Assembly: GCA_026388115.1 (NCBI GenBank)
Contig: JAPLKK010000035.1
Location: forward strand, 1 to 62,578
Length of the DNA: 62,578 nt
From: Elusimicrobiota bacterium
Lineage (GTDB): Bacteria; Elusimicrobiota; Elusimicrobia; UBA1565; JACRDR01
Direction of reading: 5' to 3'
This document shows positions 1,438 through 58,259 of this stretch, in pieces (the first letter of the stretch is position 1; the number at the start of each line of letters is the position of its first letter). A model generated the notes under the pieces. The model was given only the letters and a program-made list of their open reading frames with translations. It was not told the DNA's origin and did no database searches. Made by a program: the position numbers and the translations under genes.

Positions 1438-2478
1438 ATGGCTGACAACGAGCATCTGGTGGACGGAAAGTATGCCATCGGGGACCTGGTGGATCTCTGC
1501 CGGCTCCAGGACGTCTTCGAGAAGTTCACGCTGGCGACCGGGTACACCATCGGGTTCCTGGATCATCCGGGTTTGAACATCCTTGCGGCGACGGGCTGGC
1601 GGGACATCTGTACGGAGTTCCACCGAGCCTGTCCCGCGTCGGCGGAGGTGTGCCGGAAGAGCAACGAGCATCTCCTCGAGGACCTGAACCAGCCGGGCGA
1701 GGTCGTCGTCGAGGAGTGCGAGCACGGGCTCGTGGACTGCGCGACCCCGATCATCATCAAGGGCAAACACGTCGCCAGCCTCGCCACCGGGCAGCTGCTG
1801 CTGCGCCCTCCCGACGACGAGCGCTTCAAGGGCCAGGCCCGCCGTTTCGGCTACGACAAGGAGAAATACCTCCGGGCTTTGTCGGAGGTCCCGGTGGTTT
1901 CCGCCGAGAAGCTGAAGGCCGTCACCGCTTTTCTCGGTGCGCTCGCGGGGATGATCTCTGAGCAGGGCTACGCGAGCCTGGCGGCGATGGCACGGGCAAA
2001 GGAGAGCCTGGATCGGGAGAGCGCCGAGCGGCGGAAGGCTGAGCAGCGGGCCGAACAGCTCAACAACGAGCTGCTCGTCTACTCGGCCCAGCTCGCCGAA
2101 TCCCGCGATTTCTTGTCGAGCATCATCGATTCCGTCGCGGACCCCATCTTCGTCAAGGACCGCCTCCACCGTTGGGTCCTGCTCAACAAGGCGTACTGCG
2201 AATTCATGGGATACACCCGCGAGGAGCTGATCGGCAAGAGCGATACCGATTTCTTCCCGAAGGAGGAGGCCGAGGTCTTCTGGGCGAAGGACGAGGAGGT
2301 CTTCAAGAGCGGCAAGACCAACGTCAACGAGGAGAAATTCACCGATTCCAAGGGGCGCCTCCACGTGATCGTGACCAAGAAGGAGCTGTATCGCGACGCG
2401 GAGGGCAAGGAATTCATCGTGGGCGTCATCCGCGACGTCACCGGCAGCAAGAGGGTTGAGGCAGGGCGCGTCAGCTAG
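1438..2478 (+). CDS. PocR sensory domain + coiled coil + PAS domain protein with no output domain
   Basis: PocR motifs 'DICTEFHR..C.KSN', 'CEHGLVDCATPIII.G.HVASLATGQ'; PAS 'DPIFVKDRLHRWVLLNKAYCEFMG...IRDVT'. Confidence 0.85.
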   Translation: MADNEHLVDGKYAIGDLVDLCRLQDVFEKFTLATGYTIGFLDHPGLNILAATGWRDICTEFHRACPASAEVCRKSNEHLLEDLNQPGEVVVEECEHGLVDCATPIIIKGKHVASLATGQLLLRPPDDERFKGQARRFGYDKEKYLRALSEVPVVSAEKLKAVTAFLGALAGMISEQGYASLAAMARAKESLDRESAERRKAEQRAEQLNNELLVYSAQLAESRDFLSSIIDSVADPIFVKDRLHRWVLLNKAYCEFMGYTREELIGKSDTDFFPKEEAEVFWAKDEEVFKSGKTNVNEEKFTDSKGRLHVIVTKKELYRDAEGKEFIVGVIRDVTGSKRVEAGRVS

Positions 2479-55874: not shown

Positions 55875-58259
55875 ATGTTGCGCAAGACAATTGCGTCTTG
55901 GCTCGTGCTGTCGCTGCTCTGGTCGACGGCCGCCCAGGCACAGGTCGTCGCGGGGCCGCGCGTCGTCGCGCCGGCGCCGGTCGTTTTCGTGCCGGTCGCC
56001 GGGGTCGCCGGCGCGCCTGTCGGAGCGCCCAGCCTCTCGCCGACGCCGCTGTCCGCTTCTCCGGCCGGTGCAGTCTCTTCGCTCTCTCCAGTCCCAACGT
56101 TGCCTATTGCGCCCGCCTTGACGCCTTCCGCGGCCTCTGCCGCTTCCGCTGCCCTCGCCTCATCCGCGGCTCCGTTGGCCGACTCCGCCGCGGTGTTGGC
56201 CAAGGCCGGGGCGAAGGTGACGCAAGAGCGCGGCACCACCGCGGTCAACGGCGCGGCGATTCCCCGGGCCGCGGATGTGGCCGCCATGCCCGCGGGTGCC
56301 GCCAAGGAGTCGGGCGAGCGCGTCATGGACGCGGTGCTCGGCCAGAAGACCTCGGCGGCCGGCTCGGGGGAAGTGTACGTTGGCAGGACCTGGCACCTGC
56401 ATTATCCGTGGCGCGACTGGTCCCACGTCAGCGGAGATATGGCGTCGGACGACAAGGTCAAGGCCACCAACGGCGAGCATCCGGTCGAATCCTTGCGGGA
56501 GATACTTAACCGGACCGGTTGGCGGGCGGATGATCCCGCGGGCTATTCGGTCTCGTTCACCGCCGCCTTGATGGAGATCGCGCGCAAGCTTTTCGGCGAC
56601 GGCTGGATGCAGCGCTGGCGCGAGGCCATCTCGTGGCGCACGGCCAACGGCTCGCCGCGCATGGAGATGCTGCTGACCGGTTTCCACTTCCTTTATGGGC
56701 TGTTGCCGTGGGGTCCGGCCGCCGACGCTCTTGTACGCTGGAACGTCGGCTACCACCAGACGCTGATGCGCGAGTTCTGGGGGCCTCCCGCGCCCGGCCA
56801 GATGAAGATCTTCCGGCCGCCGGAGGTCGGGTTCAGCCCGGAGCTGGTCCCGGCCCTCGTCAAAGCCGGTGTGCAGGTGGTTGTGGTGGACAGCCATCAC
56901 ATCAGCCGGTCACTCAAGGGCTATGACGCCTCGGGGACGGCGAACATCACGCCGCCCAACCCCGCCGATCAGAGGAACACCGCTTCGCCGATGGATTATC
57001 AGACGTCCGGACAGGATGGCCATGACACGAAGGACGTGCTGCCTGCCGCCTATCTGCCGCACTGGCTGCGCTACACCGACCCGGCCGACGGCAAGGAATA
57101 CAAGATCATCGTCTTTCCCATGGCGGGCGGACCTTCTTACATCGCGGGCTACCGTTCTTTCCCCACGGACCTCGTGACGGGCGCGGCCCGCTTCGGCGCG
57201 CCGGGCCGGCCGCTGGTCATGGGGCTCGACACCGACGGCGACAACGCGTGGGGCGGGGGCTTCAGCAGCTACATGGAGGCGATGCCGAACCTGGCGCGAT
57301 GGCTCGATTCCAACGGCCATCACTTCGGCACGATCCAGGAGTACTTGAAGCGCTATCCCGTGCCCGAGAACGACGTGCTCGATTGGGTGGAGCCGGGCGC
57401 GTGGCCGAACGCGGACTGGGGCTCGCCTCAACTGCACCGGTGGTCGTGGCCGCCGATCGCGCCCGGGCCGCAAGGCCGGCCGGTGTTCAAACCCGAGAAC
57501 TGGAACTTCAAGCTGCAGTTCCACGCCCTGTTGGCCATGGCCGTCCATTACCTGCTCCAAGGCGAGGCGGCGCTGAAGGCTCGCGACCCCGGCTGTGAGC
57601 CGGACATGGGCCGGATCGTCAAGGCCGACTCGGGCCCCGCCAACACGTGGGAGGCGGCGGTTCAAGCGGTGCTGCGCGCGTTCGACTCCGGGCACGTCTA
57701 TTACGGCCCGGAGACGGACCTCGTGCAGATCCCTCTGCGCGCCGCCAAGGCCGCGGTGGACGCCGTGATGCCGCTGTTGGTGGGCAGATCTTTCGCCGCC
57801 CCGACCATTTGGGGCCCGTCGCGCTTCCCCTGGAATCCGGGCGGCGAGAACCGCGGCGAGCTTTACGGCTGGCAGTCCCGGCAGTACGGTCCGGAGTTCG
57901 ACGCCTTCGGCTTCGTCTTCTCGGCCGCGGGCTTGAAGCGCGTCGAGCTGAAGTGGCGCGTGTCGGGCGACGGGCGGACGGCCCCTGGGCCGGAGAACCT
58001 GCTTTACGCCGAGCCCGCGGGCGGAGCCGTCGGCGGCTGGAAGGCCGCGCCGATGGAACTGCGGGACGCCTATTCGCAAGTCGAATGGAAAGGCCTGCCG
58101 GAAGACCAGCGCGTTTCGGGCCTGCCGAACCTCGCCCATGCGCACGTCGCCGCCGGAGAGAACGTGCTCGTGGATTACTACATCGAGGCTGAAGGCAACG
58201 ACGGCCGGATCCAGCGCTCGCCCATCTCCCACGTCTGGGTGGGAAAGCCGAAGCCTTGA
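55875..58259 (+). CDS. Secreted glycoside hydrolase family 57 protein with Ala/Pro-rich leader
   Basis: 'WHLHYP' (HxHQP-like), 'FRPPE' (nucleophile region), 'VVVDS.H', 'DTDGDN' (acid/base region); signal peptide. Confidence 0.75.
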   Translation: MLRKTIASWLVLSLLWSTAAQAQVVAGPRVVAPAPVVFVPVAGVAGAPVGAPSLSPTPLSASPAGAVSSLSPVPTLPIAPALTPSAASAASAALASSAAPLADSAAVLAKAGAKVTQERGTTAVNGAAIPRAADVAAMPAGAAKESGERVMDAVLGQKTSAAGSGEVYVGRTWHLHYPWRDWSHVSGDMASDDKVKATNGEHPVESLREILNRTGWRADDPAGYSVSFTAALMEIARKLFGDGWMQRWREAISWRTANGSPRMEMLLTGFHFLYGLLPWGPAADALVRWNVGYHQTLMREFWGPPAPGQMKIFRPPEVGFSPELVPALVKAGVQVVVVDSHHISRSLKGYDASGTANITPPNPADQRNTASPMDYQTSGQDGHDTKDVLPAAYLPHWLRYTDPADGKEYKIIVFPMAGGPSYIAGYRSFPTDLVTGAARFGAPGRPLVMGLDTDGDNAWGGGFSSYMEAMPNLARWLDSNGHHFGTIQEYLKRYPVPENDVLDWVEPGAWPNADWGSPQLHRWSWPPIAPGPQGRPVFKPENWNFKLQFHALLAMAVHYLLQGEAALKARDPGCEPDMGRIVKADSGPANTWEAAVQAVLRAFDSGHVYYGPETDLVQIPLRAAKAAVDAVMPLLVGRSFAAPTIWGPSRFPWNPGGENRGELYGWQSRQYGPEFDAFGFVFSAAGLKRVELKWRVSGDGRTAPGPENLLYAEPAGGAVGGWKAAPMELRDAYSQVEWKGLPEDQRVSGLPNLAHAHVAAGENVLVDYYIEAEGNDGRIQRSPISHVWVGKPKP

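Follow-up and report, generated by a model that had tools for sequence, protein, structure and literature searches.

The stretch of DNA analysed here, called the window in the following, is the 62,578 nucleotides of contig JAPLKK010000035.1 from an Elusimicrobiota bacterium (assembly GCA_026388115.1), with a GC content of 67%. Four of its proteins, P1 (2471-4075, minus strand), P2 (31133-32557, plus strand), P3 (47663-50779, minus strand) and P4 (55875-58259, plus strand), begin with a leader that consists of a signal peptide and a long, nearly uncharged tract, and then continue into cargos that, as had been claimed, are unrelated to each other. What the four proteins have in common is an architecture and not a homologous domain. 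We think it possible, with a probability of about 45%, that the leader is a lineage-typical, composition-selected and disordered N-terminal stalk or tether on envelope proteins, whose function as spacer or tether we infer. The proposed order of parts is signal peptide, tract, a short element specific to the cargo family, a more polar linker and finally the catalytic or membrane domain. The tract would be a hydrophobic yet disordered stalk that spaces or loosely tethers exo-hydrolases and some membrane proteins to the membrane or to an envelope layer; it would not be an address label for a dedicated machine, and selection would act on its length, position and composition. The original prediction, made from the DNA letters, had described the leader as a modular tag that routes or tethers enzymes or keeps them latent. 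A discrete class of N-terminal leaders on unrelated cargos is what we retain of that interpretation; a homologous tag is not supported, and neither is a secretion or processing locus for it in the window. Among the underlying observations, the open reading frames (ORFs), the signal peptides and the low-charge leaders hold, but not a Gln specific to the four proteins, an uncharged length of 120-150 residues or a general helix motif, and an ADP-ribosyltransferase (ART)-like cargo is without significant support.

The four ORFs are found where they had been placed, and the leader parts of P1-P4 have the GC signature of coding DNA, with GC at the third codon position (GC3, 0.81-0.86) higher than at the first and the first higher than the second; they are therefore not spurious upstream extensions of the ORFs. 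The translations begin with a basic n-region, a hydrophobic h-region of 10-15 residues, a helix breaker and small residues at -3 and -1, and this pattern is also present in the orthologues. The N-termini are predicted to be Sec signal peptides cleaved by signal peptidase I (SPase I) at A-x-A↓Q, where the arrow marks the cleavage site. P1 starts with MKR…PCCA↓Q (residues 1-18, MKRLVLCLILGAATPCCA↓Q, 4022-4075, minus strand), where residues 1-27 have a low predicted local distance difference test score (pLDDT) in the AlphaFold2 model, and P3 with …ARRLSALL…PLCA↓Q (residues 1-25, …LPGPLCA↓QTVS, 50705-50779, minus strand). In P4 the start is MLRK…AAQA↓Q (residues 1-22, …STAAQA↓QVVA, 55875-55940, plus strand), and the signal-peptide-like segment of P2 reads MNLRK…PLWA↓Q (residues 1-26, …GGTPLWA↓QTVQ, 31133-31210, plus strand), with ten orthologues keeping …AAA↓QT[VLM]xARV. 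All four cleavage contexts that had been named, CCA↓QVEA, LWA↓QTVQ, LCA↓QTVS and AQA↓QVVA, are thus present. A lipobox, [LVI][ASTVI][GAS]C, was found in none of P1-P4, as TPCC↓A in P1 and GPLC↓A in P3 break the -3 to -1 rule and P2 and P4 are without Cys, and therefore no anchor point is evident. Of the twin-arginine motif of Tat signals, S/T-R-R-x-F-L-K, the RR occurs only in P3 (ARRLSAL) and a few relatives (MRRTFGV), and P1, P2 and P4 have none.

The Gln after the signal peptide is present in all four proteins, as noted earlier, but it is not specific to them. Counted by eye, about 11 of 15 proteins with a signal peptide in the window have Gln as first mature residue, among them a TolC-like protein (ALA↓QD) and a HEAT-repeat protein (ARA↓QQ); the genes scored include 461-1357, 8500-9822, 12579-13697, 27532-28755, 29678-30196, 30215-30868 and 54010-54513. 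This makes Gln a genome-wide trait that lies outside any tag. It resembles the Q-rule of Bacteroidetes, where Gln at +1 of SPase I substrates is cyclised to pyroglutamate, a rule described as Bacteroidetes-specific and not as a sorting signal (PMC5837995). As there, the signal-peptide proteins of the window, the leader-bearing four included, mostly have Gln at +1; unlike there, the occurrence is in a metagenome-assembled genome (MAG) of Elusimicrobia and is genome-wide.

The tract that follows is 55-80 residues long in P1-P4 and up to about 90 in relatives, has no aromatic residues and at most one or two charges, and is rich in Ala, Pro, Val, Ser, Gly and Leu (the segments after the signal peptide contain 22-33% Ala and 8-12% Pro). 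One Arg or Lys usually stands within the first 3-7 mature residues. The tract of P3 (residues 26-97, 50489-50704, minus strand) has no charged residue at all, and those of P2 (residues 27-94, 31211-31414, plus strand) and P4 (residues 23-100, 55941-56174, plus strand) have a single Arg at mature position +7. The P4 tract is predicted to be disordered, with a pLDDT of 31-37 over residues 1-100. In P1 the low-charge tract (residues 19-75, or 22-78 in the scan; 3851-4021, minus strand) contains Glu at +3 and Arg at +18, and it holds one short conserved helix, PLARLGAVL at residues 33-41, with a pLDDT of about 87, while residues 50-71 are below 50. The charged residues, and the terminal helix of the original prediction, begin only downstream of the tract. 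The Ala/Pro/Ser/Val-rich segment of 120-150 residues that had been described is thus there, but only these 55-80 residues of it are uncharged and the rest is family-specific and folded or conserved. The tract has the properties of a disordered low-complexity linker, that is biased composition, low pLDDT, divergence with insertions and deletions, and tolerance of insertion.

In the window the tract is a discrete feature that is found at N-termini only. A detector rule asking for a signal peptide and a 50-residue stretch with at most 3 charges, at most 2 aromatic, Cys or Met residues and at least 62% Ala, Pro, Ser, Val, Gly and Thr finds exactly P1-P4. The third charged residue after the signal peptide is at position 65-97 in these four, and before position 30 in all other proteins of the window. 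A position-free scan of 47 genes (18.4k residues) found tracts only at the N-termini of P1-P4, apart from an ORF extension that lacks a start codon and one transmembrane stretch, which belongs to an AI-2E transporter; the tract is therefore position-specific and never an internal or C-terminal linker in the window. The ORF extension had appeared as a fifth leader, at ORF 59490-60821 (minus strand), and was rejected as an artefact, there being no ATG, GTG or TTG from the upstream stop (60661) to a GTG near 60497. The Ala/Pro-rich, leader-like sequence at 60497-60650 is probably untranslated intergenic sequence that happens to be open in GC-rich DNA. A basic first charge after the signal peptide was also tried as a signature of the class, and gave p = 0.21 in a crude automated test.

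The tests of homology between the leaders failed across families. No leader had a match at E ≤ 0.1 in Pfam-A or NCBIfam, models for the type IX secretion system (T9SS) C-terminal domain (CTD), PEP-CTERM, choice-of-anchor and others included, which agrees with the earlier statement that no named family exists for it. Hidden Markov models (HMMs) of the elements just ahead of the cargo, built for the families of P1, of P4 with its glycoside hydrolase fold (GH57), of P3 with its phospholipase D (PLD) domains and of P2 with its CPBP protease domain, scored about 60-88 bits on their own family, the short CPBP helix being weak with 16.6 bits on P2, and gave nothing above noise on the other families in a database of about 660-1,900 ORFs. 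Whole-leader alignments with hhalign between families reached probabilities of 0.5-22% (P 0.001-0.13). Pairs of leaders aligned by Smith-Waterman had z values of 0.9-3.6 against global shuffles; against block shuffles that keep the local composition the mean z was 0.92, and the forward score exceeded the reverse in 15 of 20 pairs. A de novo search for an ungapped motif, with one representative from each of nine cargo families, gave z = 0.8 in the region after the tract, where 5 of 25 shuffles were as good, and z = 2.0 in the first 25 mature residues, a score that none of 40 shuffles reached. The leaders had been expected to score better than shuffled Ala/Pro-rich linkers, and they are barely above locally shuffled sequence (mean z 0.92; motif z = 0.8).

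Further members of the family, which an HMM search had been expected to find, did not appear either. A profile of 13 sequences and 83 positions, made from the signal peptide and mature residues 1-60, was used in an exhaustive search of 1.84 billion (1.84e9) representatives and found two proteins at E ≤ 0.001, both of them training sequences; the profile is low in information and its power therefore limited, so this is absence of evidence and not proof of absence. The idea of a modular homologous tag like the T9SS CTDs or PEP-CTERM is therefore not supported, since both outcomes that had been named as refuting it, no further members and no score above that of shuffled linkers, essentially came about. 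Some narrower candidates were rejected as well. An HMM of the N-terminal QTVxRVxAP pattern, built from the GH57 or the CPBP family, had no cross-family matches, and null2 correction removed even its self matches. The module AVN…AMP…ΦΦDxxxG of P1 and P4 has similar spacing in the two proteins, yet their HMMs do not detect each other, hhalign gives 13% and the AlphaFold2 folds differ. The motif A[DE]xx[FM][DE]xKLG of the PLD, GH57 and S8 proteins was missed both by HMM and by the de novo search.

Between the tract and the cargo each family has an element of its own. The peptides that had been quoted as a shared terminal helix are present at residues 130-151 of P1 (LRAMPEEKLTRLVGLVLDQASG, 3623-3688, minus strand), 135-156 of P4 (VAAMPAGAAKESGERVMDAVLG, 56277-56342, plus strand), 164-182 of P3 (ASADDTRAQAEHHFDAKLG, 50234-50290, minus strand) and 167-176 of P2 (GELSAFYDGS, 31631-31660, plus strand), but they belong to different, family-specific elements. 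In the AlphaFold2 model of P1 the peptide is inside a family-specific bundle (residues 76-175, 3551-3850, minus strand; pLDDT mostly 80-95, about 57-69 over residues 91-110) of the helices 81-94, 108-121, 127-132, 135-149 and 158-175. The terminal helix is helix 135-149 of these five, and its D147 is invariant in 16 homologues. The peptide of P4 belongs, in the AlphaFold2 model, to a small family-specific α/β module (residues 101-159, 56175-56351, plus strand; pLDDT 56-81) with a helix at 101-110, three short strands and helices at 132-136 and 140-154, the last of which is the terminal helix. The PLD and the CPBP family have a short, amphipathic helix in its place, each with a consensus of its own. 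The PLD orthologues (L001, L016/L025) have ADR[AS]FEFKLG, which in P3 lies, from comparison of the orthologues, within the remaining leader and polar linker (residues 98-265, 49985-50488, minus strand). Most of ten aligned CPBP orthologues keep ALDxLF[ED]G[ST], with variants in sequences P0051 and P0057; in P2 the rest of the leader (residues 95-226, 31415-31810, plus strand) contains a hairpin resembling repetitive extragenic palindromic (REP) sequences (about 31501-31546), this helix and a K/R-rich stretch ahead of the first transmembrane (TM) segment. The terminal helices are not one and the same element; that each ends in a small residue is coincidence. The motif hydrophobic-Asp-x3-Gly is indeed found in three of the four proteins, but it does not generalise, as the place of the Asp is taken by Glu in the PLD orthologues and by Gln in the S8 protein. 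Its background frequency is 31 in 18,444 residues, or 0.0017 per residue, and the probability of finding it in three of four proteins within a span of 30-80 residues is 0.0005-0.007 before correction for the post-hoc choice.

The leader is retained in the orthologues while its sequence drifts. Signal peptide, tract and a conserved module of 46 residues are present in every complete GH57-like orthologue, with identities of 16-32% and many gaps in the tract, 43-59% in the module and 70-83% in the enzyme. Ten of ten CPBP orthologues, down to 36% identity, have a signal peptide, the AAA↓QT[VLM]xARV start, a tract of roughly 100 residues and a helix of the ALDxLF[ED]G[ST] type, and the PLD orthologues retain signal peptide, tract and ADR[AS]FEFKLG. 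The P1 family retains the signal peptide, a short PLAQLGxVL helix, the spacer and the helical domain; the identity of P1 to its orthologues is 10-33% in the tract as compared to 57-71% in residues 32-45. Retention together with fast, indel-rich drift appears to be the signature of a region selected for its presence, length and composition, and not for its sequence.

The same drift would also be seen if the leader were a functionless compositional by-product, where a tolerant N-terminal linker has grown by slippage and by insertion of GC-rich repeats in a genome of 67% GC and the likeness is due to mutational bias only. The similarity barely above that of block-shuffled controls and the lack of a family in the profile search fit this explanation, as do the Ser-Leu runs encoded by CTC/TCC repeats and the in-frame REP-like hairpin in the P2 leader. 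We regard it as rather unlikely. The tracts occur only directly after signal peptides and never internally, C-terminally or in cytoplasmic proteins of the window; they exclude the Arg, Gly-rich and acidic residues of GC-rich codons that mutational bias alone would be expected to bring in, and they are kept in all orthologues over deep divergence (36-60% identity in the cargo). The REP-like palindrome itself, TCTCCCTCTCCCGCGAAGCGGGAGAGGGC(A/C)GGGGTGAGGGC, has an 11-bp stem and a GAA loop (ΔG -14.6 kcal/mol). Copies are located at 31501-31546 (plus strand), 60160-60206 (minus strand) and 22808-22850 (plus strand), with a half-site at about 53995 (plus strand) and a looser variant at 55735-55775 upstream of P4. 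Two ORFs contain it in frame, the P2 leader and ORF 59490-60821, and both encode …SPSPAKRERAGVRA….

The leader layout is not limited to the four proteins. About 0.4 Mb of related Elusimicrobia loci around homologues was sampled, where the P3-based scan of genome contigs led to one Elusimicrobia locus and a metagenome scan with the P1 family to seven. Several Elusimicrobia MAGs have the layout, and the cargos that carry it belong to at least nine families. Among these are an S8 peptidase (L017 18484-20508), a protein of the HAD family whose tract is shorter (L017 2879-4708), a two-domain PLD (L016 and L025), a homologue of the second domain of P1 (sequence P0021), a membrane protein of 707 residues (L032 14280-16403) and, in a second clade, a transporter of the major facilitator superfamily (MFS) encoded directly after a CPBP gene (L030, L032 and L033). 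The MFS protein has a start like that of a signal peptide and a leader of roughly 160 residues. Its gene begins 2-7 nt after the leader-bearing CPBP gene (L030 10001-13082, L032 7076-10160, L033 10001-13105), and the two form an apparent operon. The gene order in this clade is PMT_2 glycosyltransferase, P5C reductase, RNase D, CPBP and MFS, followed on the opposite strand by TonB-ExbD-ExbB; in L030 and L033 the PMT_2-family gene precedes CPBP by four genes, and in L032 it lies at a greater distance on the upstream side. That the tag cannot simply mean release from the cell had been said on the basis of P2, and this holds, because the leader is also carried by membrane proteins.

The restriction to the lineage also stands. 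The homologues of the window proteins for which a source is named are all labelled as Elusimicrobia or Elusimicrobiota MAGs, and every named relative with the leader is labelled Elusimicrobia. The relatives of the PLD and GH57 cargos outside Elusimicrobia have a plain signal peptide directly ahead of extracellular-type domains, and the leader is therefore a lineage-specific insertion that separates the signal peptide from exported enzymes. We found no paper describing such a leader in Elusimicrobia.

It is conceivable that the leader is still a sorting or processing signal, with short linear motifs in the disordered segment read by a dedicated envelope machine or protease, and the protein routed, anchored or released by it. 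Loose patterns do recur, QT[VL]x(1-3)R[V]xAP at the mature N-terminus, AP[SG]LS-like runs of Ser, Leu and Pro in the tract and, in the helix, an aromatic and then an acidic residue (Φ-[FYM]-[DE]-[GA]), and the best local hhalign matches fall at the signal peptide and N-terminus (P 0.001-0.0015) or at the helix (P 0.01-0.07). Candidate signals would be a mature Q-T-[VL]-x-x-R-V-x-A-P and an acidic-aromatic helix like LF[DE]G, and a candidate protease the leader-bearing CPBP protein, whose gene is joined to that of the MFS protein in the second clade. The N-terminal pattern is near-identical in the CPBP and GH57-like proteins (QTVSARVAPP, QTMAARVVAP, QTLARVVAAP, QTVARPVAAAP) and looser in S8, PLD and P1, it is the place of the de novo motif that no shuffle reached, and LF[DE]G is seen again in the CPBP family, P2 (FYDGS) and the 707-residue protein (RLFDGGG). 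Against this, the motifs were defined post hoc, every profile test fails at useful significance, the post-tract motif is not above chance over the nine families and the helix of P1 is buried within a folded domain. The four genes are scattered over 55 kb with none adjoining a secretion or processing locus, and the CPBP gene of the window is not linked to the cargo genes. The co-occurring secretion or processing locus that a dedicated machine would bring with it was not found in the window, the genes there being housekeeping or unrelated apart from ten neighbours without a Pfam match. All in all a sorting signal appears improbable to us. Clusters of small and medium signal-peptide proteins adjoin the genes of P2 and P4 (26638-30868, 54010-55313 and 58267-59493), and it was ten proteins of these clusters that gave zero matches in the Pfam search.

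The membrane cargos are difficult to reconcile with a stalk that is exported as a whole. Behind the leader, the MFS proteins have AKNVRRMM, TM1, TM2, the canonical motif A (GGLADRFSARKVL) and, after six TM segments, a K/R-rich central loop; from motif A and the six-TM N-domain it follows that the residues ahead of TM1 must be cytoplasmic. In the CPBP proteins, among them P2, the part ahead of the first TM segment is net positive and a K/R-rich loop comes after EExxxR, and the 707-residue protein has PAKAKRPGSTAGRFLR ahead of a TM hairpin, after which there is a loop carrying nine positive charges. At the same time the N-terminus of all three families resembles a cleaved Sec signal, with an h-region of 11-14 residues, Pro/Gly and AxA↓Q. 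The MFS leader is coding (GC3 0.77-0.90, conserved peptide blocks), and a mis-called start is therefore unlikely to be the answer. It is possible that the tract crosses the membrane once, that the signal-like segment is inactive as a signal in the membrane cargos, or that the topology rules fail in them.

Another explanation would be a non-canonical membrane anchor, where part of the tract acts as a marginally hydrophobic, proline-punctuated stop-transfer sequence in the inner membrane, with the N-terminus outside and the downstream part cytoplasmic, with or without cleavage. The requirement of the MFS motif A and N-domain for cytoplasmic residues, the K/R-rich segments before the first core TM segment in CPBP and the 707-residue protein, and their loops agree with this orientation. 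So do the charges around the tract, which is preceded by a single basic residue and, in the membrane cargos, mostly has basic residues after it, and each tract has a 19-residue window with a Kyte-Doolittle value of 1.2-2.1. These best windows are Pro-rich, with 0-5 prolines, their position is unconserved even among orthologues and they are often below the TM threshold; a conserved second TM segment inside the tract was rejected on these inconsistencies. AlphaFold2 shows no helix in the tract, the h-regions and AxA↓Q sites look cleavable, and the soluble cargos are of extracellular types (NucT-like PLDs, GH57 relatives with CBM/FN3 and an S8 subtilase), so that such an anchor is a doubtful explanation. 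A bolder proposal, to which we would give only a small chance, is that signal peptide, single basic residue and uncharged Pro/Ala/Val/Ser tract together make up a new topogenic element of Elusimicrobia, either a non-helical or marginal membrane crossing or anchor, or a degenerate signal for a dedicated system, possibly the CPBP and MFS pair. If true, it would explain why one N-terminal layout occurs both on secreted hydrolases and on polytopic proteins whose next segment is cytoplasmic.

From the positive-inside rule and the MFS motif A, the C-terminal end of the leader is predicted to be cytoplasmic in the CPBP, MFS and 707-residue families, which weighs against a wholly exported stalk. Other points weigh in the same direction. 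Cleavage, disorder and location of the leader proteins are all inferred from sequence and models, related genomes were sampled over about 0.4 Mb only, with a bias towards the neighbourhoods of the query families, and the loose patterns that recur at equivalent places in the hhalign comparisons, with P values of 0.001-0.02, could be a degenerate motif that is recognised, which is a lead and not a finding.

The labels given to the cargos stand for CPBP, four PLD domains and GH57, on the basis of Pfam or fold, but the ART-like label for P1 is without significant support. P2 has a CPBP/Rce1-like intramembrane protease domain (31811-32554, plus strand; PF02517, E 3.4e-15, and hydropathy), in which the motifs EExxxR, FxxxH and HxxxN are present as SEEAIFRG, FTLLHE and HGVFNG; its matches to the NCBIfam CPBP models are below cut-off. 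P3 has four PLD/HKD domains of the NucT-like nuclease type (47666-49984, minus strand; four PLDc_2 stretches, E 3e-101). Three of its HKD motifs read HNKF[MA]V[FL]DG and one HNKMMIVDG, in agreement with HxK(x)4D, and among the NCBIfam models that match, NucT and DrmC, the NucT-type nucleases are best. The 3' end of the P3 gene overlaps that of a convergent helicase gene (45615-47717, plus strand) by 55 nt (47663-47717). The cargo of P4 is a GH57-fold glycoside hydrolase with a C-terminal β-sandwich (56379-58256, plus strand; Foldseek against the amylopullulanase 7e1y, E 2e-12). The model confirms GH57, a family with a (β/α)7 catalytic fold, by structure, as the top 11 PDB matches are GH57-fold enzymes (E 2e-12 to 9e-5; 1ufa is listed only as TT1467), while the Pfam GH57 sequence match is weak (E 0.024). 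Elsewhere in the window, 35795-36415 (plus strand) encodes a polytopic protein of 206 residues with a sub-threshold Der1-like match (PF04511, E 2e-5, 25.1 bits against a cut-off of 26.6). If it is Der1-like, it would be a protein of the rhomboid-pseudoprotease type, unusual in bacteria.

The cargo of P1 is a tandem duplicate of an uncharacterised α/β domain (FRHYTT… / FRHWIK…, 2474-3550, minus strand) with a confident AlphaFold2 model, which has a mean pLDDT of 81.6 and a predicted template modelling score (pTM) of 0.75 and consists of the helical bundle and the two copies of the domain. P1 has no match in Pfam and NCBIfam, and its model none at E ≤ 0.001 among PDB structures; of the relevant PDB structures the Rhs TreTu ART toxin matches best, with a probability of 0.35 and a TM-score of 0.46. 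An ART would be recognised by an ART fold together with an R-S-E or H-Y-E catalytic triad. In the P1 family R217, H218 and Y219 are invariant, and no invariant Glu was found. There are 24 homologues, every named one from Elusimicrobia, and single-domain versions of about 350 residues are common in the family. Judging from the model, P1 and its homologues are possibly a new fold family without a Pfam or NCBIfam model.

The soluble cargos bring in a last alternative, that the leader and the family-specific element are a propeptide that holds a hydrolase inactive until it is removed outside the cytoplasm. Most soluble cargos are hydrolases (nuclease-type PLD, GH57 and S8 protease), among which pro-forms are common, and there is a conserved small element between the tract and the catalytic domain. 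We consider this very improbable, since the layout is also found on an MFS transporter and other membrane proteins, the element of P1 is a confident helical bundle within the pTM 0.75 model and the de novo motif search over nine families did not find a conserved cleavage motif.

Should the leader function as a stalk or tether, exo-hydrolases (nuclease, amylase-type and protease) of an uncultured and poorly known phylum would be kept cell-associated without lipid anchors or known sorting domains, and the leader would be an example of selection on composition and position that is invisible to profile-based annotation. If it is instead a tolerated low-complexity expansion, the N-terminal 100-200 residues are no domain family and the family-specific elements that follow belong modelled with their cargos. 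Behind the topology paradox of the MFS and CPBP proteins there could be an unusual element of membrane insertion.

Compared with known systems, the leader resembles in concept the T9SS CTD, PEP-CTERM/exosortase and GlyGly-CTERM, where one add-on occurs on many unrelated cargos in one lineage. Those C-terminal sorting domains are detectable by HMM and co-occur with a dedicated machine, whereas the leader is not detected by profiles across families and no machine was found. With the Ala/Pro/Ser(Thr)-rich linkers of the 2-oxo-acid dehydrogenase E2, the PT linkers of cellulases and mycobacterial Apa it shares composition, predicted disorder and fast drift. Some of these linkers are O-glycosylated, and in the second clade a gene for a PMT_2-family glycosyltransferase is found upstream of CPBP. 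The linkers join two folded domains or form whole proteins, while the tract of the leader is strictly N-terminal with only a signal peptide upstream. The proline-rich spacers of TonB and TolA have the same order of an N-terminal hydrophobic segment, a long Pro-rich region and a functional domain, but the TonB spacers are highly charged (Glu-Pro / Lys-Pro) and held by an uncleaved TM helix, and the leader is uncharged with an N-terminal segment that looks cleavable. In the lipoproteins LpoB and RcsF the tether after the signal peptide is of low complexity, variable in length and poorly conserved, and lets the folded domain reach across the envelope. The leader is also placed directly after the signal peptide and is likewise of low complexity, variable length and poorly conserved sequence; it differs in that lipoprotein tethers have a lipidated Cys, where P1-P4 are without lipobox, and in that its tracts are longer and charge-free. 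From this comparison the leader would work most like the lipoprotein tethers or the TonB-type spacers, minus the lipid or TM anchor and the charges.

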